Position numbers and translations under genes: made by a program | NCBI GenBank assembly: GCA_963976855.1 | Contig: CAXBMA010000008.1 | Location: 1,911 to 65,910 of the forward strand | Direction: 5' to 3' | DNA length: 64,000 nucleotides | Origin: an uncultured Aureibaculum sp. | Lineage (GTDB): Bacteria > Bacteroidota > Bacteroidia > Flavobacteriales > Flavobacteriaceae | The notes under the pieces: model-generated | Seen by the model: only the letters and a program-made list of their open reading frames with translations | What the model was told of the DNA's origin: nothing | Databases searched by the model: none | Part shown: piece by piece, positions 41,563 through 58,107 of the stretch | Layout: each line of letters starts with the position of its first letter | Numbering within the stretch: position 1 is the first letter of the stretch

Positions 41563-42804
41563 ATGCTTTTTTTATATAACATCATTGTTAACCTTATTGG
41601 ATTTTTGTTGAAAATCATCGCTTTTTTCAATAAAAAAATCAAACTTTTTGTGAGCGGTAGAACTGCGGTTTTTAAAACCTTAAATACCGCTCTTTTCGAC
41701 GATTCACCGGTTATATGGTTTCACTGTGCTTCTTTAGGGGAATTTGAACAAGGAAGACCTATTATAGAAAACTTTAAAAGCCAATATGCAAACTATAAAA
41801 TAGTCGTCACTTTTTTTTCACCTTCTGGCTATGAAGTGAGAAAAGAATATACAAATGCTGATGTGGTTACCTATTTACCGTTAGACACAAAGCGAAATGC
41901 ACGAAAATTCATTAGAATAGTAAAACCAAAAATAGCTGTTTTTGTAAAATATGAATTTTGGCCAAATTTTTTAAACGAGCTAAAAAAGGAGCAGATTCCC
42001 ACCATTTTAGTTTCTGGTATTTTTAGAGAAAGCCAATCTTTTTTTAAATGGTATGGGTCTTGGATGCGTACTTCATTAGCAGCATTCAATCATTTTTTTG
42101 TACAAAACGAAAACTCTAAAAAGCTTTTAAACGGAATTGGTTTTGACAATATCACAATTAGTGGAGATACGCGTTTCGACAGGGTTTTTGAAATTACAAG
42201 ACAAGATAATTCTTTAGATTTTATTGAACGGTTTATAGGAGATAAACTTGTGCTAGTTGCTGGTAGCACTTGGGAAAAAGATGAAGCGCTTTTAGTAAGC
42301 TACATCAATAATCACGCTGGAGAAAATGAAAAGTTTATTATTGCACCACATACGATAGACCCGAATCAAATTAACAAACTACAGGAGCGCATTTTTACAA
42401 AATCATTATTATATTCTGATAAATTAAATGCGGAATACGCTGATGTCCAAGTATTGATAGTTGACTCTATAGGCATTTTAACAAAGGTTTATAGCTATGC
42501 AAATATTGCCTATGTAGGAGGTGGCTTTGGTGTGGGCATACACAATATCTTAGAGCCTGCAACTTTCGGTGTACCAATATTAATCGGTCCCAATTATAAA
42601 AAATTTAAAGAAGCTGTTGATCTAATTGAAGAAGGTGCCTGTATTGTTGTTAGGGACAACGTGCAATTACAGGGTGAGTTATCGCCCTTAGTTAGGGATC
42701 GAAAATTTAGAGAAGGGAAGGGCCATAAAGCTGAGAATTATATTAAGAAAAATGTAGGAGCAACCCCAATTATAATAGACTATCTTCATAAAATATTAGG
42801 ATAA
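41563..42804 (+). CDS. waaA: 3-deoxy-D-manno-octulosonic acid transferase
   Basis: WFHCASLGE, GDTRFD, AGSTW, AYVGGGF, HNILEPA. Confidence 0.94.
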   Translation: MLFLYNIIVNLIGFLLKIIAFFNKKIKLFVSGRTAVFKTLNTALFDDSPVIWFHCASLGEFEQGRPIIENFKSQYANYKIVVTFFSPSGYEVRKEYTNADVVTYLPLDTKRNARKFIRIVKPKIAVFVKYEFWPNFLNELKKEQIPTILVSGIFRESQSFFKWYGSWMRTSLAAFNHFFVQNENSKKLLNGIGFDNITISGDTRFDRVFEITRQDNSLDFIERFIGDKLVLVAGSTWEKDEALLVSYINNHAGENEKFIIAPHTIDPNQINKLQERIFTKSLLYSDKLNAEYADVQVLIVDSIGILTKVYSYANIAYVGGGFGVGIHNILEPATFGVPILIGPNYKKFKEAVDLIEEGACIVVRDNVQLQGELSPLVRDRKFREGKGHKAENYIKKNVGATPIIIDYLHKILG

Positions 42805-42807
42805 CGA

Positions 42808-43443
42808 ATGTTACAAGAAAAGTTAAACACCTATTTTAAAACGATTTTCGAGGATGATTTGATACAAGAAATTGGTCAATTCGGAACGTATCAAAAGGTA
42901 ACTAAAAATGATTTGTTGATAGATATCGGCGAAAAGTTTGATAAAATTCCATTGGTGTTAAAAGGGGCTATAAAAATAAGTAGAGAAGACGAAAATGGTG
43001 ATGAAATTATATTGTATTTCTTAGAAGAGGGCGATACTTGCACTGTTACTTTTGGCAGTGGATTGGGTGATACTAAAAGTATGATACGAGGCACCGCAGA
43101 AAAAGACTCAGAGATTATTTTTATTCCAGTTGAAAAGCTAGAGGAATGGTTAGTTAGCTATAAATCTTGGCGAAAATTTGTGATTGATAGTTATAATTTT
43201 CGATTGTCTGAAATGCTCGAAACCATCGATACTTTGGCATTTATGAAAATGGATCAGCGCCTGTTTAAGTACCTTTCCGACAAGGTGAAAATAATGAACA
43301 GTCCCTCATTAACGACTACACATCAAGAAATTGCTCAAGATTTGAATACTTCTAGAGTTGTGATCAGTAGACTGCTAAAACAACTTGAAAATGAAAAGAA
43401 GATTCAACTATATAGAAATAGAATAGAAGTTCTTGCTGAGTAA
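42808..43443 (+). CDS. Crp/Fnr family transcriptional regulator
   Basis: cNMP-like N-domain; C-terminal HTH THQEIAQDLNTSRVVISRLLKQLE. Confidence 0.92.
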   Translation: MLQEKLNTYFKTIFEDDLIQEIGQFGTYQKVTKNDLLIDIGEKFDKIPLVLKGAIKISREDENGDEIILYFLEEGDTCTVTFGSGLGDTKSMIRGTAEKDSEIIFIPVEKLEEWLVSYKSWRKFVIDSYNFRLSEMLETIDTLAFMKMDQRLFKYLSDKVKIMNSPSLTTTHQEIAQDLNTSRVVISRLLKQLENEKKIQLYRNRIEVLAE

Positions 43444-43482
43444 CAATTGTTGCACTGGAACTTTAAGATTTAACTAATTTCG
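43440..43482 (+). promoter_or_regulatory. Candidate Crp/Fnr box (GTAACAATTGTTGC) plus -7 promoter element (TAATTTCG) of the yeeE operon
   Basis: Near-palindrome at 43440-43453 centred 28.5 nt before the -7 element at 43475; same geometry as at 55615. Confidence 0.62.
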
Positions 43483-43502
43483 CAACCAAATACTTATAAA
43501 AT

Positions 43503-44063
43503 ATGGACTTTATTTCACAACCATGGCCGTGGTATGTTGCCGGCCCAATGATATCACTAGTGTTATTTTTACTTTATTATTTAGGGAAATCATTTGGGGT
43601 ATCTTCAAATTTAGAAACACTATGTGCCTTAGGTGGTGCGGGTAATTTTTCAGACTATTTTAAATCGCTTGACTGGCGAAAGAACAGTTGGAATTTACTA
43701 TTTATTATAGGCGCTATTTTGGGTGGTTTTATTACCTATCAATGGCTAACACCAACAGAGCAAATTGCTTTAAATCCTCAAACAATTGAGGACTTGAGAG
43801 AAATCGGATTTCAGAATGCGGGTGCTCAATACTTGCCCGATGAAATTTTTGGTATGGATGCCTTGTTTTCTATAAAAGGATTGATCCTGCTACTTGTTGG
43901 AGGAGCACTCGTGGGATTTGGTGCACGATACGCCGGTGGTTGTACTTCTGGACACGCCATTGTTGGCTTGAGTAATCTAGAATTACCATCTTTAATATCC
44001 GTAATAGGATTTTTTATAGGAGGCTTACTAATGACATGGATAATTTTACCCTTACTATTTTAG
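43503..44063 (+). CDS. YeeE/YedE family sulfur-compound transporter subunit
   Basis: WPWYVAG, FGVSS, GFGARYAGGCTSGH. Confidence 0.88.
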   Translation: MDFISQPWPWYVAGPMISLVLFLLYYLGKSFGVSSNLETLCALGGAGNFSDYFKSLDWRKNSWNLLFIIGAILGGFITYQWLTPTEQIALNPQTIEDLREIGFQNAGAQYLPDEIFGMDALFSIKGLILLLVGGALVGFGARYAGGCTSGHAIVGLSNLELPSLISVIGFFIGGLLMTWIILPLLF

Positions 44064-44066
44064 ACG

Positions 44067-44480
44067 ATGAAAAAACTTAAATTTTTAGCAGTAGGAATAC
44101 TTTTTGGAATAATATTAAGCAAGGCTGAAGTTATTTCATGGTATCGAATTTATGAAATGTTCAAATTTCAATCATTTCATATGTATGGCGTTATTGGTTC
44201 GGCCGTTTTTTTCGGAATCATTTTAATGTATTTGTTTAAAAAAGGAGCCATTAAAACGTATACAGGAGAACAAATTAGAATAGCCCCTAAAAGAAAAGGT
44301 TTTACACGTAACATCCTTGGAGGAACCATTTTTGGTTTGGGTTGGGCTTTGGCAGGCGCATGTCCAGGGCCGATGTTTATTTTATTGGGCCGAGGTGCTT
44401 TTGCCATTAGCGTTGTTATTTTAGGAGCTTTACTAGGTGCGTTTTTCTATCATGCAGTTAAAAACAAAATCCCACATTAA
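44067..44480 (+). CDS. YeeE/YedE family sulfur-compound transporter, second half-size subunit
   Basis: SWYRIYEMF, FHMYGVIG, GLGWALAGACPGP. Confidence 0.85.
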   Translation: MKKLKFLAVGILFGIILSKAEVISWYRIYEMFKFQSFHMYGVIGSAVFFGIILMYLFKKGAIKTYTGEQIRIAPKRKGFTRNILGGTIFGLGWALAGACPGPMFILLGRGAFAISVVILGALLGAFFYHAVKNKIPH

Positions 44481-44528
44481 TTCCGTCGTTTTTCTTTTGT
44501 AACTTGCAGCTTATTCTAAGAAAATTCA

Positions 44529-45524
44529 ATGCAAGGTTTAACAGATCAATTTGGACGACAAATTACTTATTTAAGGTTGGCGGTTACTGACCGTTGTAAC
44601 TTGCGTTGTCAGTATTGTATGCCGGCGCATGGTATTGATATCGTCGATAGAAAAGAACTGTTGACCTTTAAAGAAATGTACCGAATCACACGTGTTTTAA
44701 GTGAGTTGGGTGTGGATAAAGTCCGTTTAACGGGAGGTGAACCTTTTGTGCGGAAAGATTTCATAAAGTTTTTAGAGATGTTATCATTCAATGATCAACT
44801 AGAAGAAATAAACATTACTACAAACGGCGCATTAATCGTTAATCACATTCCCAAATTAGAGGCATTAAAAATAAAAACCATCAATTTAAGTATTGATAGT
44901 TTAAATAAAGACAATTTTTCAGCCATTACCCGTCGAGATGTATTTGATGAGGTTTATAAAACCTTGGAAGCTTTAGAACAAAGCACTTTAAAACTAAAAT
45001 TGAATTGTGTAGTTCAGTCAGGGGTAAATACCCATGAATTGATTGACTTTATTGAACTCACAAAAAATAAGGATTTGGCAGTTCGTTTTATTGAGGAAAT
45101 GCCGTTTAACGGTACGGGTCAAAGAAACACAAAAGAGGTGTGGAATTACACTAAAATTTTAGACACCATTCAATCACACTATAAAGAAATTGTGCCTTTA
45201 AAGAGTGATAAGTCATCTACTTCACATAATTTTAAAATTGACGGTTATAAAGGGGCTTTCGGAATTATCCCGGCATTTACACGTACTATTTGTGGTGACT
45301 GCAATCGGATAAGGATTACTTCAACAGGCCTTTTTAAGAATTGCTTGTTTGACGAAGGTGTTTTTAATGTACGCGACTTTATGCGTAATGGGGCAAGTAA
45401 TGACGATTTGAAACAATTATTTTTGTCTATAGTAAAGGAAAAACCTGAAAATGGTTTTATCGCAGAAGCGAATCGAAAAAAGAACAAAAAGGTTTCTGAA
45501 AGCATGTCTACTATTGGAGGTTAA
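44529..45524 (+). CDS. moaA: GTP 3',8-cyclase
   Basis: Radical SAM CNLRCQYC, LTGGEP, CGDCNRIR, C-terminal IGG. Confidence 0.96.
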   Translation: MQGLTDQFGRQITYLRLAVTDRCNLRCQYCMPAHGIDIVDRKELLTFKEMYRITRVLSELGVDKVRLTGGEPFVRKDFIKFLEMLSFNDQLEEINITTNGALIVNHIPKLEALKIKTINLSIDSLNKDNFSAITRRDVFDEVYKTLEALEQSTLKLKLNCVVQSGVNTHELIDFIELTKNKDLAVRFIEEMPFNGTGQRNTKEVWNYTKILDTIQSHYKEIVPLKSDKSSTSHNFKIDGYKGAFGIIPAFTRTICGDCNRIRITSTGLFKNCLFDEGVFNVRDFMRNGASNDDLKQLFLSIVKEKPENGFIAEANRKKNKKVSESMSTIGG

Positions 45525-45529
45525 ATGAT

Positions 45530-46759
45530 ATGATTACATCACAACAAGCATTAGATATTATATTAAGTAACGCTCAAGATTTTGGTAGTGAAGAAATTTC
45601 TTTTACCAAATCACAGGGTCGCACCTTAAAAGAGGATATCAAAGCCGATAGAGATTTTCCTCCTTTTAATAGAGTGAGTATGGACGGAATAGCGATTTCT
45701 TATAAGGCTTTCACGGAAGGAAGAAGAGATTTTAGAATCGAAAATATTCAAGCCGCAGGTAGTGAACAGTTAGCATTAAAAAATGAAGCAAACTGTATCG
45801 AAGTGATGACAGGGGCTGTAGTTCCAAAAAATACAAATGCAGTCATCAGATATGAGGATTTAATTATTGAAAATGAAGTTGCCACCATTGGTGTTGAGAC
45901 AATTAGCAACCATCAAAATATCCATGAACAGGGGAAGGATCGAAAAGAAGGCGATGTGTTGATTAAAAAAAACAAAATTATTTCTGCTGCTGAAATAGGC
46001 GTGTTGGCAACGGTAGGGAAATCTATGGTTACTGTAGCAAAACAACCAAAAGTACTTATTATTTCTACTGGAGATGAGTTGGTTGAAGTTGCTGAAAAAC
46101 CATTGTCATATCAAATTAGAAGAAGTAATGTACATACGTTGGTTTCATTATTAGAACGATTGCAGCTAAAAGCAGATTCCGTTCATTTACCAGATGATAA
46201 ACCGTTGTTAAAAGAAAAAATAGCGCAGCAATTAATTACCTATGACGTGCTTCTTTTTAGTGGTGCTGTTAGTAAAGGGAAATTCGATTTTTTACCTGAA
46301 GTATTGGAAGAGTTAGGGGTAAAGAAACAATTCCATAAGGTAAAACAACGCCCAGGAAAACCATTCTGGTTCGGGACCTTTGAGCCATTGACTGAAAGTG
46401 AACGTACTGAAAAAAAGGAGATGAAAACAGTGGTTTTTGCTTTCCCAGGAAATCCGGTTTCAACTTTTGTTGGCTGCCTTAACTATTTTTACCCTTGGTA
46501 CAAGAAATCGATTGGTGTGGTTTATAAAAATTATGACAAGGCCATTTTAGCAAAGGATGTGAGTTTTAAACCAGACTTGACCTACTTTTTACAGGTCCAA
46601 TTAGAAAATAGAAAAGGTTTGTTGGTTGCGGTACCAGTAACAGGAAATGGCTCTGGAGATTTGGCTAATTTAGTCAATGTAGATGCTTTTTTAGTGCTAC
46701 CAAACAACCAAACAGATTTTAAAACGGGAGGGGCATATCCTATAATTAAATATAGATAA
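45530..46759 (+). CDS. moeA: Molybdopterin molybdotransferase
   Basis: PPFNRVSMDG, VMTGA, STGDEL, GAVSKG, QRPGKP, FPGNPVS, GSGD. Confidence 0.94.
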   Translation: MITSQQALDIILSNAQDFGSEEISFTKSQGRTLKEDIKADRDFPPFNRVSMDGIAISYKAFTEGRRDFRIENIQAAGSEQLALKNEANCIEVMTGAVVPKNTNAVIRYEDLIIENEVATIGVETISNHQNIHEQGKDRKEGDVLIKKNKIISAAEIGVLATVGKSMVTVAKQPKVLIISTGDELVEVAEKPLSYQIRRSNVHTLVSLLERLQLKADSVHLPDDKPLLKEKIAQQLITYDVLLFSGAVSKGKFDFLPEVLEELGVKKQFHKVKQRPGKPFWFGTFEPLTESERTEKKEMKTVVFAFPGNPVSTFVGCLNYFYPWYKKSIGVVYKNYDKAILAKDVSFKPDLTYFLQVQLENRKGLLVAVPVTGNGSGDLANLVNVDAFLVLPNNQTDFKTGGAYPIIKYR

Positions 46760-47248
46760 ATGAGTAATTTTTCACATATAAACAAAGACAATCAACCAAA
46801 AATGGTACATGTTGGTGATAAGGAAGTAACCAAAAGAATGGCAACAGCAAGTGCGGAGCTATTTTTAGGAAAGGAAATTGTCTTACATTTTACCAATAAT
46901 GAAATTGTGACCAAAAAGGGGCCCGTTTTTCAAACTGCTATTATTGCCGGAATTCAAGCAGTAAAAAAGACAGCCGACTTAATTCCGATGTGCCACCCTT
47001 TACTCATAAACGGTGTAGATATTACAATTGATGTAATAGATGCTACCCAGGTAAAAATTATATGCACAGTAGAAGTTGACGGCAAAACTGGGGTTGAAAT
47101 GGAAGCGCTTACAGGTGCTTCAGTTGCAGCATTAACTATTTACGATATGTGTAAAGCCTTGTCTAAAGAAATAATAATCAAAGCCGTGAAGCTGGTAGAA
47201 AAAACGGGCGGAAAATCGGATTATAAAATCGATGACAATGGAAATTAA
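46760..47248 (+). CDS. moaC: Cyclic pyranopterin monophosphate synthase
   Basis: MVHVGDK, AGIQAVKKT, LIPMCHP, TGVEMEAL, YDMCKA, KTGGKS. Confidence 0.96.
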   Translation: MSNFSHINKDNQPKMVHVGDKEVTKRMATASAELFLGKEIVLHFTNNEIVTKKGPVFQTAIIAGIQAVKKTADLIPMCHPLLINGVDITIDVIDATQVKIICTVEVDGKTGVEMEALTGASVAALTIYDMCKALSKEIIIKAVKLVEKTGGKSDYKIDDNGN

Positions 47249-48359
47249 AAAACATCAAAAACACACTCAATTAATTCGTAGAGAAAATGATCATTTCGCT
47301 CCAAACGAAATTTCCATTTTAGGTGTAAAATGTTCGATAATTAGTGATTTAGTTCAAAAAATAGGTAAAAAACTTCAAAAAACGTCAAATTTAGCATATT
47401 TAGATGCTTCGCATTCCGAAGCGCTTCAAGCGCCAATTGTAGATGTGTTTACAACGCACCATTCAGGCATTTTAAACACCAATAGTACTACAGAGTTGAA
47501 TGCCTATAATGAACGCATTCGTTTTGCTGCTTATGACCTCTTGTTAATTAATGGAAATCATTTTAAAGGGGACAAACAAATCTTAATTCTAGATAATGAA
47601 AAAGAAGCTTCGGTTAAGAAACGTTTAGATCAATTAGATAGAATACAGTTTGTTATTAAGTTGCATGAAGATGCAAAATATTTTGACTTTTTAGTTGAAA
47701 AACACCCAACCATTAAAAACTTGAGATGCTATCATATTGATGAAATTGATAAAATAGCAAGGCATATTGAAAATTTAATTCAAGAAAAAATCGCTCCCGT
47801 TAAGGGCTTGGTTTTAGCCGGAGGTAAAAGCACCAGAATGGGTGCTAATAAAACGATGCTTAATTATCATGGAACATCGCAGTTGAACTATGCCACTGAA
47901 CTATTGGAACACAATTTATTGGAAACCTATATTTCTGTTGGTCTCGATCAAGATACTGAATCAAAGGCATTTATAAAAGACAGCTTTTTTAATTTAGGGC
48001 CTTTTGGTGCAATATGCTCTGCATTTCGGTTTGACCCCAATAAAGCATGGTGTGTTTTGGCAACTGATTTACCATTTGTAACTGATGATTTGATTAAATT
48101 ACTGTTGCAAAAACGAAACCCAAAAAAAATAGCAACGGCTATAAAAGGGAAATCTAAAGAATTTGTAGAGCCATTAATTACTATTTACGAGCCAAAAGCT
48201 TATCCTGTTTTATTAAGTTATTTGGCACAAGGATATGCGTGCCCTAGAAAAGTATTGATCAATTCAGATGTAGAAATTGTAGAAGTTGACGATGTTTTGA
48301 TTCAGAATATAAACACGCCCGAAGAATTTGAAGAAGCCATCAAAAAAATTAATAAGTAA
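47232..48359 (+). CDS. MobA-like NTP transferase (Moco guanylyltransferase) with a ~185-aa N-terminal extra domain
   Basis: C-terminal half: GLVLAGGKSTRMG, GPFGAI, ATDLP, EPL, NINTPEE. Confidence 0.82.
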   Translation: MTMEIKKHQKHTQLIRRENDHFAPNEISILGVKCSIISDLVQKIGKKLQKTSNLAYLDASHSEALQAPIVDVFTTHHSGILNTNSTTELNAYNERIRFAAYDLLLINGNHFKGDKQILILDNEKEASVKKRLDQLDRIQFVIKLHEDAKYFDFLVEKHPTIKNLRCYHIDEIDKIARHIENLIQEKIAPVKGLVLAGGKSTRMGANKTMLNYHGTSQLNYATELLEHNLLETYISVGLDQDTESKAFIKDSFFNLGPFGAICSAFRFDPNKAWCVLATDLPFVTDDLIKLLLQKRNPKKIATAIKGKSKEFVEPLITIYEPKAYPVLLSYLAQGYACPRKVLINSDVEIVEVDDVLIQNINTPEEFEEAIKKINK

Positions 48360-49199
48360 TTGCAAAATACACTTCACATCTTAAATGGTGATAGCACCAC
48401 TAACGGCATTGAAAAAGGCGGGATTGGCGGCGATACTATTATTTGGCGAGAAATGCTTGTTGAAGGACCGTTACATCAAGATATTGGTAGTGATGCATTT
48501 TGGTTGCAACGATATTCATTTTTTGAGAATGAATTCGGTGTTTCTAAAATAGATTATTATGATAAAACCATCAAAGAATTAGTTCGAATAGAAGATTTAT
48601 CCGACTATAATGAGGTGGTTTTGTGGTTTGAATTCGATTTGTTCTGTCAGATAAACTTAATAGCGCTTTGCACTTATTTATTACAATCGTATAGAAAGGA
48701 TATTAATTATTATTTAGTGTGTACCGGTAAGGTGAAAGGAGAAAAGCAACTACGATCATTGGCCGATTATGCATCAAATGAATATCCTGAATTATTCGAA
48801 AATAGAATTAAACTTTCAAGACACAATTTGTTGTATGCGCAGCAATGTTGGAATGTATATGTTGCAAATAACCAGGAAGAATTGGCGCAATTTAATTTTA
48901 ATAAAAGCGCAAAATTTAAGTACTTAAAACCAGCGATAGATCAGCATCTAAAACGATTTGCTCAAAAAAATGAGCTCAACCAAATAGACACTAAAATAGT
49001 AGAAATAATTCATGATGGAATTGGAGAAGAAAGGGCGATTGTAAAAGAATTACTGCGGTGGCAACAAGAAGAAACGGTATATGGTTTTGGGGATTTACAA
49101 TATTTTAAATATCTCGAAAATATGAAAACGTACTATACCATTAAAAATGAGAACTATAGCTTGAATGCTTTAGGAAGAACGATCATAAACAACATATGA
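48360..49199 (+). CDS. DUF1835 domain protein
   Basis: LHILNGD, WREML.EGP, LWFEFDLFCQ, GFGDLQY; TTG start abutting the upstream stop. Confidence 0.72.
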   Translation: MQNTLHILNGDSTTNGIEKGGIGGDTIIWREMLVEGPLHQDIGSDAFWLQRYSFFENEFGVSKIDYYDKTIKELVRIEDLSDYNEVVLWFEFDLFCQINLIALCTYLLQSYRKDINYYLVCTGKVKGEKQLRSLADYASNEYPELFENRIKLSRHNLLYAQQCWNVYVANNQEELAQFNFNKSAKFKYLKPAIDQHLKRFAQKNELNQIDTKIVEIIHDGIGEERAIVKELLRWQQEETVYGFGDLQYFKYLENMKTYYTIKNENYSLNALGRTIINNI

Positions 49200-50308
49200 A
49201 AATAACGAAGAAAGAACTATATAAACGTCAAACTACCTTAGCCGAAATAGGAGATCTCGGTCAAAAAAAATTGGTACAATCCAACGTTGTTATTGTTGGT
49301 TGTGGTGGTTTAGGAGGTGTAGCGGCTGTTTATTTGGCAGCTAGCGGGGTTGGTGTAATTCATTTGGTAGATTATGATGTGGTAGACGTTTCTAATTTAC
49401 ACCGGCAGGTATTTTATACACCGGCCGATGTTGGCAAACCAAAAGTGGAGGTGTTGGCGAATCATATTCGATCAATGACTCCTTTTGTTGCCGTACCTGT
49501 TTCCAATATGATGGTTAAAAAAAACAATGTAATCAAGATGCTTTCAAAAGCAGATTACGTGCTCGATTGTACCGATAGTTTACCCGTTAAATACCTGTTA
49601 AATGACGCTTGTATCTTACTAGACAAGCCGTTGATTTACGGATCACTCTATAAATATGACGGTTATGTAGCTAGTTTTAACATAAAAGATAAAAAGGGTG
49701 CGTTCAGCAGTAACTTGCGTGACGCATTTCCTGAAATATCTAAAGAAGCCATACCCAATTGTTCTGAAATAGGCACTTTAAATACAATCGTGGGTATTAT
49801 AGGTTTATTACAAGCGAATGAAGTGTTGAAATTGATAACAGGTATTGGAAAACCACTGATAAACGAATTGTTAATTTATAATAGTTTGGAGAATTCTCAG
49901 TACAAAATGAAATTGAAACCGCGAGACACATCTTATACTGAGCGTAAGCAACGAATTGCGAAACTTTTTGAAAGGGAAACTTATTTTGATGCTACTAATG
50001 AAGTACAAGATGAAGCCTTATTGATTTCGGCGGAAGTGTTACGGAAAAAATTATCATTTGGTGAAGCTACTTTGGGATTAAACATTATTTCGGTTATTGA
50101 AGATATGAAGATTCAGGTACCGTTTCACGTTCATAAAAAAATACCCTTATCACAGTTGAATGTTGAAGCGCTTAATTTTAATGAAGCGAATGAATATGTG
50201 ATTGTTTGTAACAAAGGGGTTTCAAGTTATATTGCAATGCAAAAAATTAAAGAAGTACATCCAGACCTGAAAGTGTTAAGTTTAAAAAACGGAATAACAA
50301 ATTACTAA
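49196..50308 (+). CDS. moeB: MoeB/ThiF family adenylyltransferase with C-terminal rhodanese-like domain
   Basis: VGCGGLG, DYDVVDVSNLHRQ, DCTDS, PNCSEIG; C-terminal IVCNKGVSS. Confidence 0.85.
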   Translation: MKITKKELYKRQTTLAEIGDLGQKKLVQSNVVIVGCGGLGGVAAVYLAASGVGVIHLVDYDVVDVSNLHRQVFYTPADVGKPKVEVLANHIRSMTPFVAVPVSNMMVKKNNVIKMLSKADYVLDCTDSLPVKYLLNDACILLDKPLIYGSLYKYDGYVASFNIKDKKGAFSSNLRDAFPEISKEAIPNCSEIGTLNTIVGIIGLLQANEVLKLITGIGKPLINELLIYNSLENSQYKMKLKPRDTSYTERKQRIAKLFERETYFDATNEVQDEALLISAEVLRKKLSFGEATLGLNIISVIEDMKIQVPFHVHKKIPLSQLNVEALNFNEANEYVIVCNKGVSSYIAMQKIKEVHPDLKVLSLKNGITNY

Positions 50309-52081
50309 ATGCAGCAAAATCCATTAGAATTTTATTTAGCAGAAAAAGTAAGGTTCGAGCAAACATCGGCAAAATTAAAAAAACAACTAACACTGTCTAG
50401 CACGATTAGATTACTTGCTTTTTTGGCAATTTGTTTCGGCTTGTACTTAACTTTCGGAAATATAAAAGCAATGATCGCTATAGGCGTATTTGGCTTTTTA
50501 GGCTTTTTATATTTAGTTTCTCGGCATTCAGATTTACAGTATAAGAAAGATGTGATTAGTAAATTAGTTGAGATTAATACAACAGAAATTAATGTCTTAA
50601 ATGGTGATTATTTATCTTTAGATACGGGTAGCGAATTTATAGACCCAACGCATTTTTATAGTTATGATATTGATTTGTTTGGCAGAGGCTCTTTTTTTCA
50701 ATATATCAATAGAACAGCTACAAAGGAGGGTAAAAAAGAGTTGGCTAATACCTTAACGGAAAACGAAATTTCTGAGATTAAATTGAAGCAAGAAGCCATC
50801 GATGAGTTGGCAAACAAACGCGTTTGGAGCCAACACTTCACGGCAATTGCTAGTTTGGTCAATGTGCAACATCCTGCCAAAGACATTATCAATTGGATAC
50901 ACCATTATAAACCTGTTTTTTCAAGTATTTTAACTGTTTTGCCGACCTTGTTTTCAGTCCTTTCATTAGTATTAATTGCACTGGTTGGTTTCGATTTGTT
51001 GCCTTTTAATATCGTGTTAGTTTGGTTTTTTATAGGTCTTGGAATTTCTATGTATTACGTTAAAAGAGTGAATGCTATTTATCAAAACGCAGATAATGCC
51101 AAAGATACTTTTAAGCAATATCACAAACTGTTGAATGAAATAGAAACCACTACATTTTCTTCAGAACTACTTAAAGAGAAGCAGACGTCAATTCAGTTAG
51201 AAACGAAAAAGGCATCAGTTATTTTCAGTTCATTTTCTAAAATATTAGACGCCCTAGATCAGCGTAATAATTTACTTATTGCCTTATTTGGAAATGCCTT
51301 TTTTTTACGAGATACACAGCAAGCTTATAAAGTAGAACAGTGGATTAAAACCTATGCTGCCAACGTGGAAAATTGGTTTGCCGTAATTGCTTTTTTTGAT
51401 GCACAAAATTCACTGGGAAATGTAAGATTCAATCATCCAAGTTATACTTTTCCCAAAATAAAACAAAATGAACAGGTTATCGCTGCAAAAAACTTGGGGC
51501 ATTGTTTGTTGAAAGAAAAACAACGGATTTGCAATGATTACACCATAGATAATCAGCAGTTTTTAATTATTACTGGAGCTAATATGGCAGGGAAGAGTAC
51601 TTTTTTGCGTACGGTTTCTTTATCGATTGTCATGGCCAATATTGGTTTGCCTGTTTGTGCTACTTCCTTTGAATATTCGCCTATTAAATTGATTACAAGT
51701 ATGCGAACTTCAGACTCGTTAGCGGATGATGAATCGTATTTCTTTTCTGAGCTGAAACGCTTAAAATTTATTGTAGAAGAAATTAAAACGGAAAACTACT
51801 TTATTATTTTGGATGAAATTTTAAAAGGTACAAATAGCACTGATAAAGCCATTGGGTCTAAAAAGTTCGTACAAAAATTAGTAGCTTCAAATTCAACAGG
51901 AATTATTGCCACCCACGATTTAAGTTTGTGTGAAATAGAAAAAGAGCTAACACAAATACAGAATTATTATTTTGATGCCGAAATCATCAATGATGAACTC
52001 CATTTTGATTATAAACTGAAAGATGGTGTGTGTAAAAATATGAATGCTTCGTTTTTATTAAAGAAAATGGAAATAGTCTAA
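50309..52081 (+). CDS. Membrane-anchored MutS-related ATPase (MutS domain V only)
   Basis: N-terminal and central TM segments; ITGANMAGKSTFLR, ESYFFSEL, LDEILKGTNS, IATHD; no mismatch-binding domain. Confidence 0.85.
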   Translation: MQQNPLEFYLAEKVRFEQTSAKLKKQLTLSSTIRLLAFLAICFGLYLTFGNIKAMIAIGVFGFLGFLYLVSRHSDLQYKKDVISKLVEINTTEINVLNGDYLSLDTGSEFIDPTHFYSYDIDLFGRGSFFQYINRTATKEGKKELANTLTENEISEIKLKQEAIDELANKRVWSQHFTAIASLVNVQHPAKDIINWIHHYKPVFSSILTVLPTLFSVLSLVLIALVGFDLLPFNIVLVWFFIGLGISMYYVKRVNAIYQNADNAKDTFKQYHKLLNEIETTTFSSELLKEKQTSIQLETKKASVIFSSFSKILDALDQRNNLLIALFGNAFFLRDTQQAYKVEQWIKTYAANVENWFAVIAFFDAQNSLGNVRFNHPSYTFPKIKQNEQVIAAKNLGHCLLKEKQRICNDYTIDNQQFLIITGANMAGKSTFLRTVSLSIVMANIGLPVCATSFEYSPIKLITSMRTSDSLADDESYFFSELKRLKFIVEEIKTENYFIILDEILKGTNSTDKAIGSKKFVQKLVASNSTGIIATHDLSLCEIEKELTQIQNYYFDAEIINDELHFDYKLKDGVCKNMNASFLLKKMEIV

Positions 52082-52130
52082 TAGAGCCATTAAAAATAAA
52101 ATTCACTATTTTCGCCAACAAAGGGGGGAA

Positions 52131-52784
52131 ATGGATAAAAGACTTAAGCAGAAACCGATGAACATCGTTAAGGTGGTATTATTCGGGCCTGAATCTACAG
52201 GTAAAACGACATTGGCAAATCAACTGGCATATCATTATCAAACAGTTTGGGCGCCTGAATATGCACGCGAATATTTACAGGAAAAATGGAATAATAAACG
52301 CCAGGTGTGTGAGCATGAAGATCTGTTACCCATCGCAATTGGTCAAATAAAACTGGAAAATAGATTGGCACAACGTGCAGATAAGGTGCTGATTTGTGAT
52401 ACTGATTTGTTAGAAACAAAAGTGTATTCAGAAGAGTATTATGATGGTTTAGTAGATTCTGAAATAGAAATTGCTGCTGAAAAAAATCAATATGATATTT
52501 ATTTATTGACGTCTATTGATATTCCTTGGAGATTTGACAGTATTCGTGATAAGCCCGGACAACGAGAAGAAATGTTTAAGGCCTTTGAAAATGCATTAAA
52601 AAAGTATAAAAAGCCATACGTTACGCTAAAAGGCAATGAAGAAACACGATTTAATAAGGCTGTAGCAGTTATAGACGATTTAATAGCAAAAAAAGAAAAT
52701 TTATTTAATTATTCGGAATCAGAAGATATCGTTATTACCAAAAGGAAAAGTTTGTTTAGTAAATTTTTTAGCGCTAGAGAGTAG
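52131..52784 (+). CDS. NadR-type kinase-like P-loop ATPase (AAA_28), paralog B
   Basis: LFGPESTGKTTL, EYAREY, CDTD, IPWRFDSIRD. Confidence 0.82.
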   Translation: MDKRLKQKPMNIVKVVLFGPESTGKTTLANQLAYHYQTVWAPEYAREYLQEKWNNKRQVCEHEDLLPIAIGQIKLENRLAQRADKVLICDTDLLETKVYSEEYYDGLVDSEIEIAAEKNQYDIYLLTSIDIPWRFDSIRDKPGQREEMFKAFENALKKYKKPYVTLKGNEETRFNKAVAVIDDLIAKKENLFNYSESEDIVITKRKSLFSKFFSARE

Positions 52785-52798
52785 CTCAATGCCTATTG

Positions 52799-53224
52799 TT
52801 ATGGTGTAGCATTCACCCAAACTTCACCATCTATAAAATGTTCTTTTTTCCAGATAGGCACTGTTTCTTTTAAGGTGTCAATGGCAAATTGACATGCCGC
52901 AAAAGCAGCTTTTCTGTGTGGAGAAGAAACGGCAATAATTACTGGAATATCACTAATTTGTAATGCCCCTGCAGCATGATGAATGGCAATATTTAAAATG
53001 TCAAAATCGGCCAAAGCCATTGTTGCAATTTTTTGCATTTCTTTAAGTGCCATCGCTTCATAGGTAGAAAAGTCGAGCAGCGTTACTTCCTTACCTTGGG
53101 TTTGGTTTCTAACGGTGCCAACAAACAAGGCAACCCCACCACAAGAAGCATCTTGAACAAAATCATAACAGTCTTGTAAATTCAACTTTTCAGCGGTTAT
53201 TTTTATAGAGCTATTTTCTGACAT
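52799..53224 (-). CDS. moaE: Molybdopterin synthase catalytic subunit
   Basis: GGVALFVGTVR, AVSSPHRKAAF, IDTLKETVPIWKKE. Confidence 0.95.
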   Translation of the reverse strand: MSENSSIKITAEKLNLQDCYDFVQDASCGGVALFVGTVRNQTQGKEVTLLDFSTYEAMALKEMQKIATMALADFDILNIAIHHAAGALQISDIPVIIAVSSPHRKAAFAACQFAIDTLKETVPIWKKEHFIDGEVWVNATP

Positions 53225-53291
53225 TTTTTAACTAAATTATATACAAAGTTAAGGAATCAGGTTGTACTTTTGCAGACGAAAATTTAAACGT

Positions 53292-53567
53292 ATGAAAAAC
53301 ACATTTAGAGTAGTAAGTGTATTAGAAGGACTGTCATATATTGTCTTACTTTTTATAGCAGTACCCATTAAATATTTAGGTGATGACGAATCGTATGTAA
53401 AAATGTTTGGGATGCCACATGGCTTGTTGTTTGTAGCCTACATCGTATTGGCATTTTTATTAAAAAGTGAACTGAACTGGAAGGCAAAAACCTTTTGGAT
53501 AATCTTGGCAGCCTCTATCATCCCTTTTGGGACATTTTATGTAGAAAAGAAATATTTAAGAAGCTAA
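53292..53567 (+). CDS. DUF3817 membrane protein
   Basis: FRVVSVLEGLSY, G.PHG.LF.AY, ASIIPFGTF; start at the second Met (53292). Confidence 0.78.
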   Translation: MKNTFRVVSVLEGLSYIVLLFIAVPIKYLGDDESYVKMFGMPHGLLFVAYIVLAFLLKSELNWKAKTFWIILAASIIPFGTFYVEKKYLRS

Positions 53568-53599
53568 ATTCTATTCATTGATTTTGTTCGTGTTGCTGG

Positions 53600-53842
53600 T
53601 TAACCCCCACTAACAGGTGGAATCAAAGCGATGACATCATTTTCTTTAACAATACAATTACCGTCGGCATACACTTCATTTACAGCAATTGAATAATTTT
53701 TAAAGGCATTTAATTTAGGGTGTAACTGTGCTAATTGTTGTCTCAAATTTGCTAGTGTAGTGCCCTCAGAAACAGCAAGGCTTATTGTACTACAATTCGC
53801 AACATCTCGAAGTATTCCAAAAAATAAAATATTTATTTGCAT
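53600..53842 (-). CDS. moaD: Molybdopterin synthase sulfur carrier subunit
   Basis: ILFFG, AVNE, IPPVSGG C-terminal Gly-Gly. Confidence 0.94.
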   Translation of the reverse strand: MQINILFFGILRDVANCSTISLAVSEGTTLANLRQQLAQLHPKLNAFKNYSIAVNEVYADGNCIVKENDVIALIPPVSGG

Positions 53843-53895
53843 AAAATCAAAGTTATTAAAATCTCTTACATTTGTGAGACCAAATAGTTAATTCT

Positions 53896-55611
53896 TTGAA
53901 AAAAATATTTCCAATACTAGATTGGTTACCTAATTACAAACTTTCTTATTTAAAAGGTGATTTATTTGCTGGGCTAACCGTTGGTGTTATTTTAATACCA
54001 CAAGGTATTGCTTATGCAATTATTGCTGGGTTACCACCAATATACGGGCTCTATACAGCATTGGTGCCGCAGTTAATGTATGCTATTTTTGGCACATCGC
54101 GTAAGCTCGCTACAGGTCCAATAGCCATAGATTCGTTAATTATAGCCGCAGGGGTATCAACACTAGCAACTGTTGAAAGTGAAAATTATATTGCCATGGT
54201 GTTAGCACTCACCTTAATGGTTGGTTGTATACAATTAATCCTGGGCCTTTTTAGGTTGGGATTTATAGTAAATTTTTTATCAAAACCAGTACTTACTGGT
54301 TTTGTGACTGCAGCCGCATTAATTATTAGTTTTAATCAGTTTAGAGGTTTGTTGCGTATTGATGCAGAACGCAGTAACCAAATTCAACATGTAGTACAAA
54401 ATGTGATTGCTAAGTTAAGTACCATTCATTGGAAAAGCTTTCTAATTGGGGGTGTTGCCATCATAATTATTTACGGACTTAAAAAAATCAACAGAAAAAT
54501 TCCTGGCCCTTTAGTTGTTGTTGTTTTGGGGATCTTGATTATGAAATGGTTTACAAACTATTTTGAAGGCGTTGAAATTGTAAAGACCATTCCCAAAGGC
54601 TTGCCTTCATTTGAGATTCCAGTACTAGATTATGCCTTATTTTTAAAACTATTGCCCTTTGCTTTAACCTTGGCTTTTACGGGTTTTTTACAAGGAATAT
54701 CTATAGCAAAGGCTCTAGATGAAGATAGTGAGGAACATAAATTAATTCCCAATAAAGAACTAATAGCCTTAGGCTTGGGAAATATGGTGGGGTCTTTATT
54801 TAGTTCATATACATCAACAGGCAGCTTTGCGAGGTCTGCGATTAATAAAGAAGTAGGCGCGCAAACAGCCATGTCAAATGTTTTTTCGGCATTGTTTATC
54901 TTATTAACCCTATTGTTTTTTACACCAATATTTTACTTTTTACCTAAAACGGTGTTGGCGGCTATTATTATAGCAGCTGTATTCGGACTGATCAATATAA
55001 AAGACATTCAGTTTTTGTGGAAAAGTAATAAAATGGATTTTGTGATGATGCTTGTTACTTTTATAATCACTTTGACGGTTGGGATTAAAGAGGGAATATT
55101 AGTAGGCGTATTAGTGTCAATTTTTGTCGTGATTTTTGAGACGTCTAGACCACATATCGCCATTTTGGGCAAAGTACCCGATACTACACACTTTTATAGA
55201 AATGTAAACCGATTTGATGATGTAGAAGTAATAGATGAAATATTAATTGTTCGTTTTGATGCGCGATTGTACTTTGCCAATGCCAGTTATTTTAAAGATA
55301 AAATAGCTGAATATGCTAAAACGAAACCGAAATTAAAACTAATAATTATTGATGCTGAGGTAATTAATAACATTGATAGTAGTGGTGTTTTGGTTTTAAA
55401 AGAAGTTATTGAAACCTATAATAAAAGAGGAGTAAAAATTTATTTCACAGGTATTAAGGGCCCTGTAAGGGATGCATTCGCTAGAAGTGAATTGATTGGT
55501 GAAATTGGATTGGAAAATTGCTTTATGAGTATTCAAGAAGGTGTCGATAACTATAAAAAAGGAAATATAGATTTTAAATATTCAAAATACATAAATCAGG
55601 CAAATAAGTAA
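53896..55611 (+). CDS. SulP family anion permease with STAS domain
   Basis: GDLFAGLTVG..IPQGIAYA..GLPPIYGLY, TGSFARSA, C-terminal STAS (FANASYF, DSSG); TTG start. Confidence 0.93.
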   Translation: MKKIFPILDWLPNYKLSYLKGDLFAGLTVGVILIPQGIAYAIIAGLPPIYGLYTALVPQLMYAIFGTSRKLATGPIAIDSLIIAAGVSTLATVESENYIAMVLALTLMVGCIQLILGLFRLGFIVNFLSKPVLTGFVTAAALIISFNQFRGLLRIDAERSNQIQHVVQNVIAKLSTIHWKSFLIGGVAIIIIYGLKKINRKIPGPLVVVVLGILIMKWFTNYFEGVEIVKTIPKGLPSFEIPVLDYALFLKLLPFALTLAFTGFLQGISIAKALDEDSEEHKLIPNKELIALGLGNMVGSLFSSYTSTGSFARSAINKEVGAQTAMSNVFSALFILLTLLFFTPIFYFLPKTVLAAIIIAAVFGLINIKDIQFLWKSNKMDFVMMLVTFIITLTVGIKEGILVGVLVSIFVVIFETSRPHIAILGKVPDTTHFYRNVNRFDDVEVIDEILIVRFDARLYFANASYFKDKIAEYAKTKPKLKLIIIDAEVINNIDSSGVLVLKEVIETYNKRGVKIYFTGIKGPVRDAFARSELIGEIGLENCFMSIQEGVDNYKKGNIDFKYSKYINQANK

Positions 55612-55614
55612 TTT

Positions 55615-55657
55615 GTGATAAATGTTACATTACATTGTCAATTACTGATTAACTTTG
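55615..55657 (+). promoter_or_regulatory. Candidate Crp/Fnr box (GTGATAAATGTTAC) plus -7 element (TAACTTTG) of the MBL-rhodanese operon
   Basis: TGTGA-N6-TTACA, one mismatch from the CRP consensus; centre 28.5 nt before the -7 element at 55650. Confidence 0.65.
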
Positions 55658-55675: not shown

Positions 55676-57082
55676 ATGAATGTAGAACAGATTTATACAG
55701 GTTGTTTATCTCAAGGAGCTTATTATATTGAGAGTGACGGAGAAGTTGCAATTATTGACCCTTTGCGGGAGGTGGATCCTTATATCGAGAGAGTCGTAAA
55801 AGATAAAGCCAAGATTAACTATATTTTTGAAACCCATTTTCATGCCGATTTTGTGAGTGGACATGTGACTTTAGCTGAGAAAACCGGAGCTACTATTGTT
55901 TACGGACCCAATGCGGAAACCACTTATGATTCGTATGTGGCTAAAGATGGTGAAGTGTTTCAAATAGGAAAGATTACCATTACGGCATTGCACACACCTG
56001 GTCACACCATGGAAAGCACCACTTATTTATTAAAAGATGAAAACGGGAAAGATCACGCTATTTTTAGTGGAGACACCTTGTTTTTAGGAGATGTAGGCAG
56101 ACCTGATTTGGCACAGAAAGGAGCGATGACTCAAGACGACCTAGCAGGAATGCTCTATGATAGTTTGAGAACAAAAATAATGACCTTGGCCGATGATGTT
56201 ATAGTATATCCAGCACATGGAGCAGGTTCAGCTTGTGGTAAAAACTTGAGTAAAGAAACCGTGGGAACTATTGGTGAGCAAAAAAGAACCAATTATGCTT
56301 TACGGGCCGATATGTCTAAGAAAGAGTTTGTAAAAGAAGTGACAGATGGTTTATTGCCACCACCACACTATTTTCCTCTAAATGTGAAACTGAATAAGGA
56401 AGGTTATGAAAGTATAGATACGATTATAGATAAAGGTACAAAGGCGTTAAAGCCGGATGATTTCGAAAAAATAGCAAATGAGACTGACGCCTTGATTTTA
56501 GACGTACGTCATCAATCTGATTTTATTAAAGGCTTTATTCCACGTTCCATATTTATAGGTATTGATGGTGGGTTTGCCCCTTGGGTTGGTGCGTTAATTA
56601 AAGACATTACACAGCCTATTTTATTAGTAACTCCTGAAGGTAGAGAAGAAGAAACGGTTACACGTTTGTCGCGTGTTGGGTTTGATCATACCTTAGGATA
56701 CCTTGACGGAAGTTTTGAGTCTTGGAAAGAAGCTGGAAAAGAAATTGACACCTTAGAATCGATTGCACCAGCTAGTTTAGAAGCAAAGTTAAAGGAAGGA
56801 GCTATTTCGATATTCGATGTTCGTAAACCCGGTGAATATTCAAGTGAACATATTGTTGATGTACCTAACACGCCCTTAGATTATTTAAACAGTCATTTAT
56901 CGGAATTCCCTAAGAATAAACCGTTTTATGTACATTGTGCTGGCGGTTATCGTTCCGTGATAGCCTCGTCTATATTAAAAGCGAGAGGGTTTCACAATGT
57001 AGTTGATATTGCCGGAGGGTATGGAGCTATAAAAAATACTGGGATTAAGCGTACAGATTACGTTTGCCCTACAACACTCTAA
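55676..57082 (+). CDS. MBL-fold persulfide dioxygenase-like protein fused to rhodanese domains (CstB-like architecture)
   Basis: THFHADF, HTPGHT, GDVGRPDL, PAHGAGSACGK; C-terminal HCAGGYRS rhodanese loop; ATG at 55676. Confidence 0.85.
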   Translation: MNVEQIYTGCLSQGAYYIESDGEVAIIDPLREVDPYIERVVKDKAKINYIFETHFHADFVSGHVTLAEKTGATIVYGPNAETTYDSYVAKDGEVFQIGKITITALHTPGHTMESTTYLLKDENGKDHAIFSGDTLFLGDVGRPDLAQKGAMTQDDLAGMLYDSLRTKIMTLADDVIVYPAHGAGSACGKNLSKETVGTIGEQKRTNYALRADMSKKEFVKEVTDGLLPPPHYFPLNVKLNKEGYESIDTIIDKGTKALKPDDFEKIANETDALILDVRHQSDFIKGFIPRSIFIGIDGGFAPWVGALIKDITQPILLVTPEGREEETVTRLSRVGFDHTLGYLDGSFESWKEAGKEIDTLESIAPASLEAKLKEGAISIFDVRKPGEYSSEHIVDVPNTPLDYLNSHLSEFPKNKPFYVHCAGGYRSVIASSILKARGFHNVVDIAGGYGAIKNTGIKRTDYVCPTTL

Positions 57083-57087
57083 ATTAC

Positions 57088-57597
57088 ATGAAAACAATTT
57101 TCAGTTTTATTTTTATTGTAGGTCTAAATTTTAGTTGTTTTTCACAAACAAAAGTAGCGGAGCATATTTTGTCTCTTGACAGTCTTACTGATGCGCCAAC
57201 AGCAACAATTAATGATGTTGCATGGATAGCTGGTTTGTGGAAAGGCGAGGCCTTTGGAGGCGTCACGGAAGAAAATTGGAGCGCACCTTCAAATGGTTCT
57301 ATGATGGCGGCTTTCAAGGTATCTGCTGAAGGCAAGGTGCTATTCTATGAGTTAGAGATAATAAGAGAACTGGAAGGGTCTTTAATTTTACAGCTAAAAC
57401 ATTTTAATGGCGACTTAAAAGGTTGGGAAACGAAAGATGAAACAGTTGATTTTCCGTTGGTAAAAATTACGGAAAATACCGTTTATTTTGATGGAATGAC
57501 CTTTGATAAAATTTCTGAGAACGAAATGAATGTGTATGTGTTAATGCATGCAAAGGACGGAACAACCAGTGAAATGAAGTTCAATTATAAAAAATAA
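57088..57597 (+). CDS. Exported protein of unknown function (DUF6265-like)
   Basis: Signal peptide; WIAGLWKG, EENWSAP, LKHF; family from memory. Confidence 0.65.
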   Translation: MKTIFSFIFIVGLNFSCFSQTKVAEHILSLDSLTDAPTATINDVAWIAGLWKGEAFGGVTEENWSAPSNGSMMAAFKVSAEGKVLFYELEIIRELEGSLILQLKHFNGDLKGWETKDETVDFPLVKITENTVYFDGMTFDKISENEMNVYVLMHAKDGTTSEMKFNYKK

Positions 57598-57648
57598 AAG
57601 CTCCTCAAAAATGAGTCAATATTAAACACTTTAACTTATTTCAAACAG

Positions 57649-58074: not shown

Positions 58075-58107
58075 AAAAAAGCCGATGATTTTCATCGGCT
58101 TTTTTTT
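58073..58107. terminator. Bidirectional intrinsic terminator
   Basis: A8-GCCGATGA-ttt-TCATCGGC-T8 between convergent genes. Confidence 0.92.

Follow-up and report, generated by a model that had tools for sequence, protein, structure and literature searches.

We propose that a 211-residue Crp/Fnr-family protein controls two promoters of sulfur-related genes in a 64,000-nucleotide stretch of DNA from an uncultured Aureibaculum sp. of the Flavobacteriaceae (contig CAXBMA010000008.1; hereafter the window). The regulator gene lies at 42808..43443 on the plus strand, starting 3 nt past the kdtA stop, and two dyad boxes of the form TGTAAC-N4-GTTACA, the full motif as defined from relatives, are very probably the operators of this adjacent regulator. 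The first box stands before a split YeeE/YedE-type sulfur transporter pair followed by genes for molybdenum cofactor (Moco) synthesis, and the second before an operon encoding a persulfide-dioxygenase-like protein with rhodanese domains. The comparative data support a reading in which the adjacent protein would control both promoters and the regulon would concern sulfur, as had been proposed from the sequence alone: the box follows the regulator gene in relatives, it recurs at orthologous promoters, it co-occurs with the regulator and its spacing to the promoter is fixed. The proposal as a whole, in which these operators would serve class II activation, the signal would be reactive sulfur acting via Cys78 and the regulon would be linked to Moco, is in our judgement likely.

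Two boxes at the same distance from their promoters

Box 1 (core GTAACAATTGTTGC, 43440-43453; full form AGTAAC-AATT-GTTGCA, 43439..43454) and box 2 (core GTGATAAATGTTAC, 55615-55628; full form TGTGAT-AAAT-GTTACA, 55614..55629) were verified in the sequence, each agreeing with the motif at 10/12 consensus positions. Both stand upstream of a Bacteroidota -7 promoter element on the plus strand, TAATTTCG at 43475..43482 and TAACTTTG at 55650..55657, with a gap of 21 nt between box and element and with the box centre 28.5 nt 5' of the first T of the element. The boxes, their coordinates and their equal promoter distance were thus confirmed as described in an earlier, sequence-only reading of this DNA; of the two -7 elements that it named, TAACTTTG matches the consensus in full (6/6) but TAATTTCG at only 5/6 positions. 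The overlap between the stop codon of the Crp/Fnr gene and the left arm of box 1 was also borne out, the TAA lying at 43441-43443, and box 2 begins 3 nt past the sulP stop.

A sigma-70-type promoter scan was uninformative for Bacteroidota. In F. psychrophilum, a genome-wide map of transcription start sites shows the sigma-A box TAnnTTTG occupying -12 to -5 (PMC9723704), and with the -7 box so taken, transcription is predicted to start at ~43487 from the box 1 promoter and at ~55662 from the box 2 promoter, the operator centre falling at -40.5 relative to the predicted start at both. With a spacer of 22 nt, the same placement would bring the operator centre to the class II position of -41.5, and this is the spacing that prevails among relatives: for 143 distinct sites of at least 16 bits from other genomes, a -7-like element lies 22 nt away in 90 (the box centre then being 29.5 nt 5' of the first -7 T), 21 nt away in 9 and 23 nt away in 5, over a background of about 3 per position. 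The fixed distance stands for the two window promoters, both at 21 nt, but across the family the commonest spacer is 22 nt.

Class II activation sites of CRP and FNR lie at -41.5. Because a one-turn-precise, fixed spacing at this position matches the class II sites of NtcA, CRP and FNR, activation appears considerably more likely than repression. The same operators and regulator could also serve a repressor that sits in the -41 region, blocks sigma-A and is released by reactive sulfur, as CstR, SqrR and BigR are. Occlusion is geometrically possible, since the box overlies the place of a -33 element, and the dedicated reactive-sulfur sensors except FisR are repressors released by sulfane sulfur (PMC13467558). 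A repressor, however, needs no spacer fixed to within 1 nt, whereas 90 of the 104 sites with a -7-like element 21-23 nt away have a spacer of exactly 22 nt, and this spacing is the canonical -41.5 activator position of NtcA (PMC3898017); we regard repression as unlikely. A TTG at -33-like spacing, present at 5/109 box promoters versus 74/544 candidate ordinary promoters in this genome, does not discriminate.

Genome-wide scan with a matrix from other genera

The degenerate dyad GTRAY-N4-GTTRC, by which the two boxes had originally been described, proved to be no signal by itself. Within the window it has 2 matches where 0.87 are expected, a number reached by 22 of 100 shuffles, and in the whole genome it has 39 matches against 95 for the reversed control; as a statistic it was rejected, since its count in the window does not rise above chance and its count in the genome falls short of the control. 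As this consensus was not enriched, it was replaced by a symmetrised weight matrix built from 37 sites in 29 other genera with the window genome left out, whose defining columns are 91-97% G, T, A, A and C.

Scanned with this matrix, box 1 (17.7 bits) is the best site of the entire 3.28-Mb genome and box 2 (14.0 bits) ranks ninth, so that the genome-wide scan suggested in the sequence-only reading comes out in favour of both. A score of 14 bits is attained by only nine distinct sequences of the genome, including one present in three copies, and about 39 sites reach 12 bits, mostly in coding DNA; in the window, no site other than the two boxes exceeds 12.3 bits. When the comparison is restricted to sites that are non-coding and have a -7-like element at 20-23 nt, boxes 1 and 2 rank first and second once tied repeat copies are set aside. 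The tie with box 2 comes from three identical copies of a repeat unit on another contig: the box-like 22-mers (14.0 bits) at G000:C13:25711, 26167 and 26626 lie 456-459 nt apart, are evidently copies of a tandem repeat unit and have no sulfur genes associated with them.

The palindrome accompanies the regulator in relatives

Of 121 genera sampled in the same family, 98 have a homologue of the regulator (E <=1e-30); the genomes were sampled rather than covered exhaustively, and those that are related do not count as independent observations. The palindrome lies within ~100 nt past the regulator stop in at least 17 of 29 other genera, in two of which it overlaps that stop, as in the window; G035 and G058 have counterparts of box 1 at the same place. 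The motif is thus conserved in relatives that carry the regulator, an outcome on which the earlier reading had made its proposal depend. In the 98 regulator-bearing genomes the perfect 16-mer TGTAACNNNNGTTACA occurs at 120 sites versus 40 for the reversed control, while the 23 genomes without a regulator match have 7 sites versus 8. The palindromes that were fetched, 75 in all, lie outside any open frame of at least 150 aa in 64 cases; most of the remainder reach no further into a frame than its opening or closing codons, and only two lie deep in coding DNA.

Box 2 is found again at orthologous places. Footprinting upstream of orthologues, which had likewise been suggested, gave a box at the MBL-rhodanese promoters of four relatives, namely the same-genus genome G342 and G058, G035 and G022 from three other genera, with a spacer of 21 or 22 nt; the box directly follows sulP in three of these four loci. 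Furthermore, MBL-rhodanese genes lie downstream of boxes in at least nine other genomes.

A Crp/Fnr subfamily with an invariant cysteine

The regulator has the architecture of the Crp/Fnr superfamily, with cNMP_binding (PF00027) at 37.4 bits against a cut-off of 27.5 and HTH_Crp_2 (PF13545) at 35 bits against a cut-off of 27. For its closest named homologues, which are 74-78% identical and come from Aureibaculum species, the annotation goes no further than Crp/Fnr family regulator, and it appears to be a member of an uncharacterised Crp/Fnr subfamily that extends across the Bacteroidota. The recognition helix R183-V184-V185-(I/V)186-S187-R188, which reads R-V-V-I-S-R in the window protein, is essentially invariant in 65 homologues from across the phylum, position 184 being Val in 63 of them. 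Replacement of CRP Glu181 by this Val would account for a half-site GTAAC rather than GTGA or TTGAT. The proposed operator is a Crp/Fnr-type dyad, as had been supposed, but its motif GTAAC-N4-GTTAC is of the NtcA/HcpR2 type rather than TGTGA-N6-TCACA.

Cys78 is the sole cysteine of the window protein, which bears out the absence of an Fnr-type cysteine cluster noted earlier, and it is invariant in 65/65 homologues. Two further cysteines are common in the subfamily, Cys84 in 52/65 and Cys85 in 58/65, with the full arrangement C78-x5-C84-C85 in 45/65. Profile alignment to CRP sets Cys78 opposite Ile70 (beside Gly71 and Glu72), Lys90-Ser91 opposite Arg82-Ser83, and a Val in place of Glu72, which would put the cysteine in the former cyclic AMP (cAMP) phosphate-binding cassette; Ser91 is nearly invariant among homologues. 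An AlphaFold2 model built from 28 close homologues, of good overall confidence (mean predicted local distance difference test score, pLDDT, 75.9), has a long central helix (residues 119-163) and a C-terminal helix-turn-helix.

The window protein belongs to a small sister clade with Cys78 only, made up of this protein and six others (from G342, G035, G005, G022 and G021; one is counted from two overlapping loci). G035 and G058 carry two paralogues each: a window-type protein, 65-71% identical and encoded in a conserved kdtA-regulator-yeeE-yeeE-Moco cluster, and a second protein, ~52% identical, that has C78 and C85, adjoins SQR and rhodanese genes and has boxes of its own. The window genome has the window-type regulator only, with a single subfamily protein at E <=1e-30.

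Comparison with NtcA, HcpR2, CRP and FNR

Among solved structures the best single-sequence match is NtcA (E 1.6e-12; profile match E 1.1e-15) and the best profile match is PDB 3DV8 (E 2e-21), with CRP next; no HcpR or CooA appeared among the structure-database matches at the thresholds used, and P. gingivalis HcpR gave no match at E <=0.01. NtcA is accordingly the best characterised relative among solved structures, and it shares a recognition helix of the form R-V-x-x-x-R with Val at the CRP-181 position (T-S-R-V-V-I-S-R in the window protein and T-R-V-T-V-T-R in NtcA). It binds GTA-N8-TAC centred at -41.5 on activator-dependent promoters (PMC3898017), and this pattern is contained in TGTAAC-N4-GTTACA. 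The two differ, however, in that the operator described here has two further fixed bases in each arm (GTAAC), that NtcA has Phe, in its FGVL stretch, where the invariant pocket Cys stands here, and that NtcA governs a nitrogen regulon in cyanobacteria, as against a sulfur regulon in Bacteroidota with sigma-A -7 promoters. Indeed the protein scores only 52.6 bits on the NtcA equivalog TIGR03697 (cut-off 244.95), and likewise 56.6 bits on the CRP model NF008732 (cut-off 266). With CRP and FNR class II systems it shares the domain architecture and a dyad operator that, by its predicted position, would lie over the upstream promoter element at about -41.5, whereas FNR has a cysteine cluster, three N-terminal and one central, for a 4Fe-4S centre and the window protein has Cys78 alone. 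PDB 3DV8, a Crp/Fnr-family structure from structural genomics, has cysteines aligned with Cys78 and Cys84, the second of which is lacking in the window protein; its recognition helix R-E-V-I-T-R is CRP-like, so that it probably reads a different operator.

The HcpR2 branch was predicted in 2005 to bind GTAACnnnnGTTAC in Bacteroides, Clostridia and others and to control hcp (PMC1274295). The consensus is identical and the phylum is shared, but HcpR2 is described as having Pro at CRP position 181 and is tied to hcp and nitrosative stress by prediction, versus Val and sulfide/sulfite oxidation genes here. Despite the identical motif, membership of HcpR was rejected on the recognition-helix residue and the regulon content; none of the examined clusters downstream of boxes was identified as hcp, and hcp in this genome was not searched for.

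Given the shared motif, another Crp/Fnr paralogue, such as an HcpR2-type nitrosative-stress regulator with a GTAAC-N4-GTTAC motif, could in principle read the window boxes. The predicted HcpR2 site (PMC1274295) speaks for this, as do 12 first-look candidates in the genome search, some of which may be other Crp-like genes. Against it, the genome encodes only one protein of the subfamily (E <=1e-30), the box abuts the regulator gene in many genera, enrichment of the palindrome tracks the presence of the regulator, and the genes controlled are sulfur genes rather than hcp, with Val rather than the HcpR2 Pro at CRP-181. We consider control by another paralogue very improbable.

A proposed reactive-sulfur signal

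The dedicated reactive-sulfur sensors belong to the CsoR (CstR), ArsR (SqrR/BigR/YgaV) and Fis (FisR) families according to a 2026 review; the known persulfide sensors control SQR, persulfide dioxygenase, rhodaneses, TauE and YeeE/YedE, most of the known sensors are repressors, and a pair of cysteines forms a di- or polysulfide bridge in them (PMC13467558). The subfamily described here has a regulon of the same kind and is likewise a cysteine-bearing regulator encoded next to its targets, but it is of another fold and family, has one cysteine in the window protein in place of a pair, and is probably a class II activator where those are mostly repressors. From the regulon and the invariant pocket cysteine, the likeliest signal would be a reactive sulfur species that derives from sulfide and acts on Cys78. 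With one cysteine a di- or polysulfide bridge is impossible in the window protein, and a sulfur response would have to use a chemistry that differs from that of the known sensors. We tentatively suggest mono-persulfidation of Cys78 in the former cAMP pocket, the -SSH group acting as the ligand that would switch the dimer to a DNA-binding, polymerase-recruiting form.

The operators may also be real and the signal a different one, either thiosulfate or sulfite bound non-covalently in the pocket or a haem or metal ligated by Cys78, which would make the protein a sensor of redox state or of a gas. Sulfur oxyanions are the cargo of the regulon's YeeE and SulP transporters, the Arg82-Ser83 pair with which CRP binds phosphate has Lys90-Ser91 as its aligned counterpart, Ser91 being nearly invariant, the single cysteine has no partner for a polysulfide bridge, and CooA holds its haem by a Cys/His pair in the same general region. 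Yet no conserved His partner stands beside Cys78, the conservation of Cys78 in all homologues and of C78-x5-C84-C85 in most of them suits thiol chemistry, and the regulon matches that of the known persulfide sensors (SQR, PDO, TauE, YeeE) (PMC13467558). A signal of this other sort is in our view doubtful.

Regulon content in the phylum and in the window

The genes downstream of 75 palindromes were clustered. A flavoprotein occurs at 13 sites, and its representative exceeds the cut-off of the NCBIfam model for type III SQR with 646 bits; MBL-rhodanese or rhodanese proteins occur at 11. A FadL/TodX-like outer-membrane protein divergent from SQR was found at 7 sites, YeeE and TauE/SafE at 5 each, and a SorA/SorT-like molybdenum sulfite dehydrogenase at 3, with single cases of a cytochrome bd subunit I, a YgaP-like membrane protein, SulP, a pyridoxal-phosphate enzyme and others. 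Overall, boxes stand before YeeE genes in many genera. The combination of regulator and box with YeeE, SQR, MBL-rhodanese, SulP or YgaP is also present in other orders and classes of the phylum, where the homologues are 40-49% identical.

In the window genome the regulon has shrunk to two promoters, the PDO-rhodanese and YeeE genes being the only ones linked to a box. The gene content downstream of both boxes is as had been claimed, by Pfam and NCBIfam. Box 1 is followed on the plus strand by the YeeE/YedE-type pair at 43503..44480 (186 aa and 137 aa; Sulf_transp and DUF6691 by Pfam, with weak TsuA/YedE matches in NCBIfam) and by the Moco (bis-molybdopterin guanine dinucleotide) genes moaA, moeA, moaC, a mobA fusion, DUF1835 and moeB at 44529..50308. 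Box 2 is followed, also on the plus strand, by the operon at 55676..58074, in which the MBL-fold persulfide-dioxygenase-like protein with rhodanese domains is encoded from 55676, DUF6265 at 57064-57597 and a further rhodanese at 57649-58074. The longest MBL-rhodanese frame opens at a TTG (55655), whereas the ATG at 55676 gives MNVEQIYTGC; as the TTG lies inside the -7 element and the orthologues begin MK/NVEQ, translation probably starts at the ATG, which would leave a leader of ~14 nt. No box of at least 8 bits was found in this genome upstream of five TauE paralogues, one DMSO-reductase-family gene, two xanthine-dehydrogenase-family genes or the PALP and DUF983 orthologues.

A proposed link to molybdenum cofactor synthesis

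The Moco genes are co-directional with yeeE and are separated from it by a 48-nt gap before moaA that has no strong terminator; they have no full box of their own. Their gene order is kept in G035, G058, G005 and G022. That the regulator would also act on them had been claimed in the sequence-only reading, and it would probably do so, to judge from operon structure, synteny and the Moco-dependent sulfite-oxidising enzymes of relatives. In the gap itself, 44499-44503 is a lone GTAAC half-site, at the same place as a full box (15.7 bits) in G058, which suggests that moaA once had a regulated promoter of its own.

Relatives supply the rationale for the link, since their regulon includes Moco-dependent enzymes of sulfite oxidation, both SorA-like and SoeABC-like. 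Two of them have a box with spacer 21 in the interval that separates moaD/moaE from sulP (20.1 bits in G035, 20.7 bits in G058). The operon behind it (L146:2914-8700 in G035; L147:3908-8560 in G058) comprises genes for a 538-aa PsrB-NrfD fusion, for a molybdopterin oxidoreductase of 963 aa, for a redoxin lipoprotein and for another SulP; the window has no counterpart of it at the syntenic position. An Fe4S4 domain is present in the oxidoreductase but a twin-arginine (TAT) signal is not, and no NCBIfam model reached its cut-off on this protein. We take it to resemble the SoeABC sulfite-oxidising enzyme in size, cytoplasmic orientation, subunit set and context, and an enzyme of the same type follows yeeE behind a box in two further genomes (G109 and G082). 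A SoeA-like enzyme was not found in this genome, G342, G005 or G022, and since the two nearest outgroups on the regulator tree have it, the simplest reading is that it was lost in this genus.

A model for control of the two operons

In the model that most reasonably fits these observations, the NtcA-like helix of the regulator (R-V-V-I/V-S-R) would read TGTAAC-N4-GTTACA, and the dimer would bind ~40.5 nt 5' of the predicted transcription start (41.5 in most relatives) with its right arm where a -33 element would lie. In this position it would activate sigma-A RNA polymerase by direct contact, in the class II mode, and so switch on yeeE-yeeE, probably together with the Moco genes by read-through, as well as the persulfide-dioxygenase/rhodanese-DUF6265-rhodanese operon. 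The signal would most likely be the sulfide-derived reactive sulfur species at the invariant pocket Cys78.

Several observations weigh against this model. Both boxes are imperfect, at 10/12 positions, and have the minority 21-nt spacer, and the -7 element of box 1 is imperfect as well. Box 1 has no counterpart in G342, a genome of the same genus whose regulator-yeeE locus has no site of at least 8 bits, and it is also absent from G005, where a box lies upstream of kdtA instead. The known reactive-sulfur sensors are mostly repressors with a cysteine pair and the window protein has one cysteine, around which (residues 65-90) the AlphaFold2 model has a pLDDT below 50. Finally, SQR, SorA-type and SoeA-like enzymes and a regulon-type TauE were not found in the 98.7%-complete assembly of this genome; as regulon enzymes are missing, the system may serve a different purpose here than in relatives. 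The PsrB-NrfD fusion, the FadL-like outer-membrane protein, cydA and YgaP were also not found in that assembly.

The imperfect boxes, the absence of box 1 from G342, the degenerate pattern at chance level and the roughly 39 sites of at least 12 bits in the genome could together mean that one or both window boxes are functionless look-alikes that arose by chance. Against this, two of the nine sequences that reach 14 bits are non-coding, stand 21 nt from a -7 element and precede genes whose orthologues carry boxes in many other genera, one of them abutting the regulator gene (~1e-5 per fixed position), and box 2 is kept at the orthologous place in four relatives. A chance origin is thus highly unlikely, and we retain the model in which both boxes would be operators of the adjacent regulator.

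The yeeE promoter architecture varies within the genus: in G342 (locus L109) a small lipoprotein-like open reading frame, starting MKCKIIVLL, is inserted between the regulator and yeeE1.

Other features of the window

A weak box-like sequence, ATAACGAATGTTAC at 42801..42814 (9.4 bits), spans the kdtA stop and the regulator ATG. It has no -7 element at the right distance and is not conserved in G035 or G058; this doubtful site could serve autoregulation or be fortuitous. In several other genera, strong boxes stand 70-130 nt 5' of the regulator gene.

Within the Moco operon, at 47232-49199, the mobA gene has an N-terminal extension of ~190 aa, matched in part by the MobA/MobB fusion model, and is followed by the 279-aa DUF1835-like gene. 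The operon is extended without gaps at 50309-52784 by a MutS2-like gene, with a MutS_V domain only, and an AAA_28 gene; the MutS2-like gene holds the same position in G035, G058 and G022. On the minus strand lie moaE (52799-53224; Pfam MoaE) and an 80-aa open reading frame at 53600-53842 with a Gly-Gly C-terminus, probably moaD since it is 40% identical to the frame ahead of moaE in G035; between the two lies DUF3817, encoded on the plus strand. The SulP/STAS anion permease is encoded at 53896..55611 on the plus strand (Pfam, TIGR00815), and no site of at least 7 bits was found upstream of it, whereas other genera have box-controlled SulP genes. The MBL-rhodanese operon is closed by a strong two-way terminator hairpin at 58073..58107, with a 16-pair stem and T and A runs on both sides.

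Significance

Bacteroidota, and notably the marine Flavobacteriaceae, are major degraders of organic matter in sulfide-exposed habitats, and to our knowledge how they switch on sulfide detoxification has not been described. Searches of the full-text literature outside subscription journals turned up no account of a Bacteroidota regulator of the Crp/Fnr type acting on sulfide oxidation, nor a sulfide sensor belonging to this protein family. The window protein is probably a Crp/Fnr activator of class II whose regulon is new and whose signal is probably new too, and an activator of this type would join the CsoR, ArsR and Fis families (PMC13467558) as a fourth class, one that spans the phylum. As the operator is precisely defined, regulons become predictable from sequence alone.

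The window adds two things to this. It is a natural experiment, in that a paralogue keeping only the invariant pocket cysteine singles out Cys78, and it ties the regulon to molybdenum-cofactor synthesis. If the suggested mono-persulfidation holds true, it would mean sensing of reactive sulfur without a cysteine pair, in a protein family so far not linked to sulfide. If the proposal as a whole is true, the regulator would co-ordinate the transport of sulfur compounds, the oxidation of persulfides and the supply of molybdenum cofactor for sulfite oxidation.

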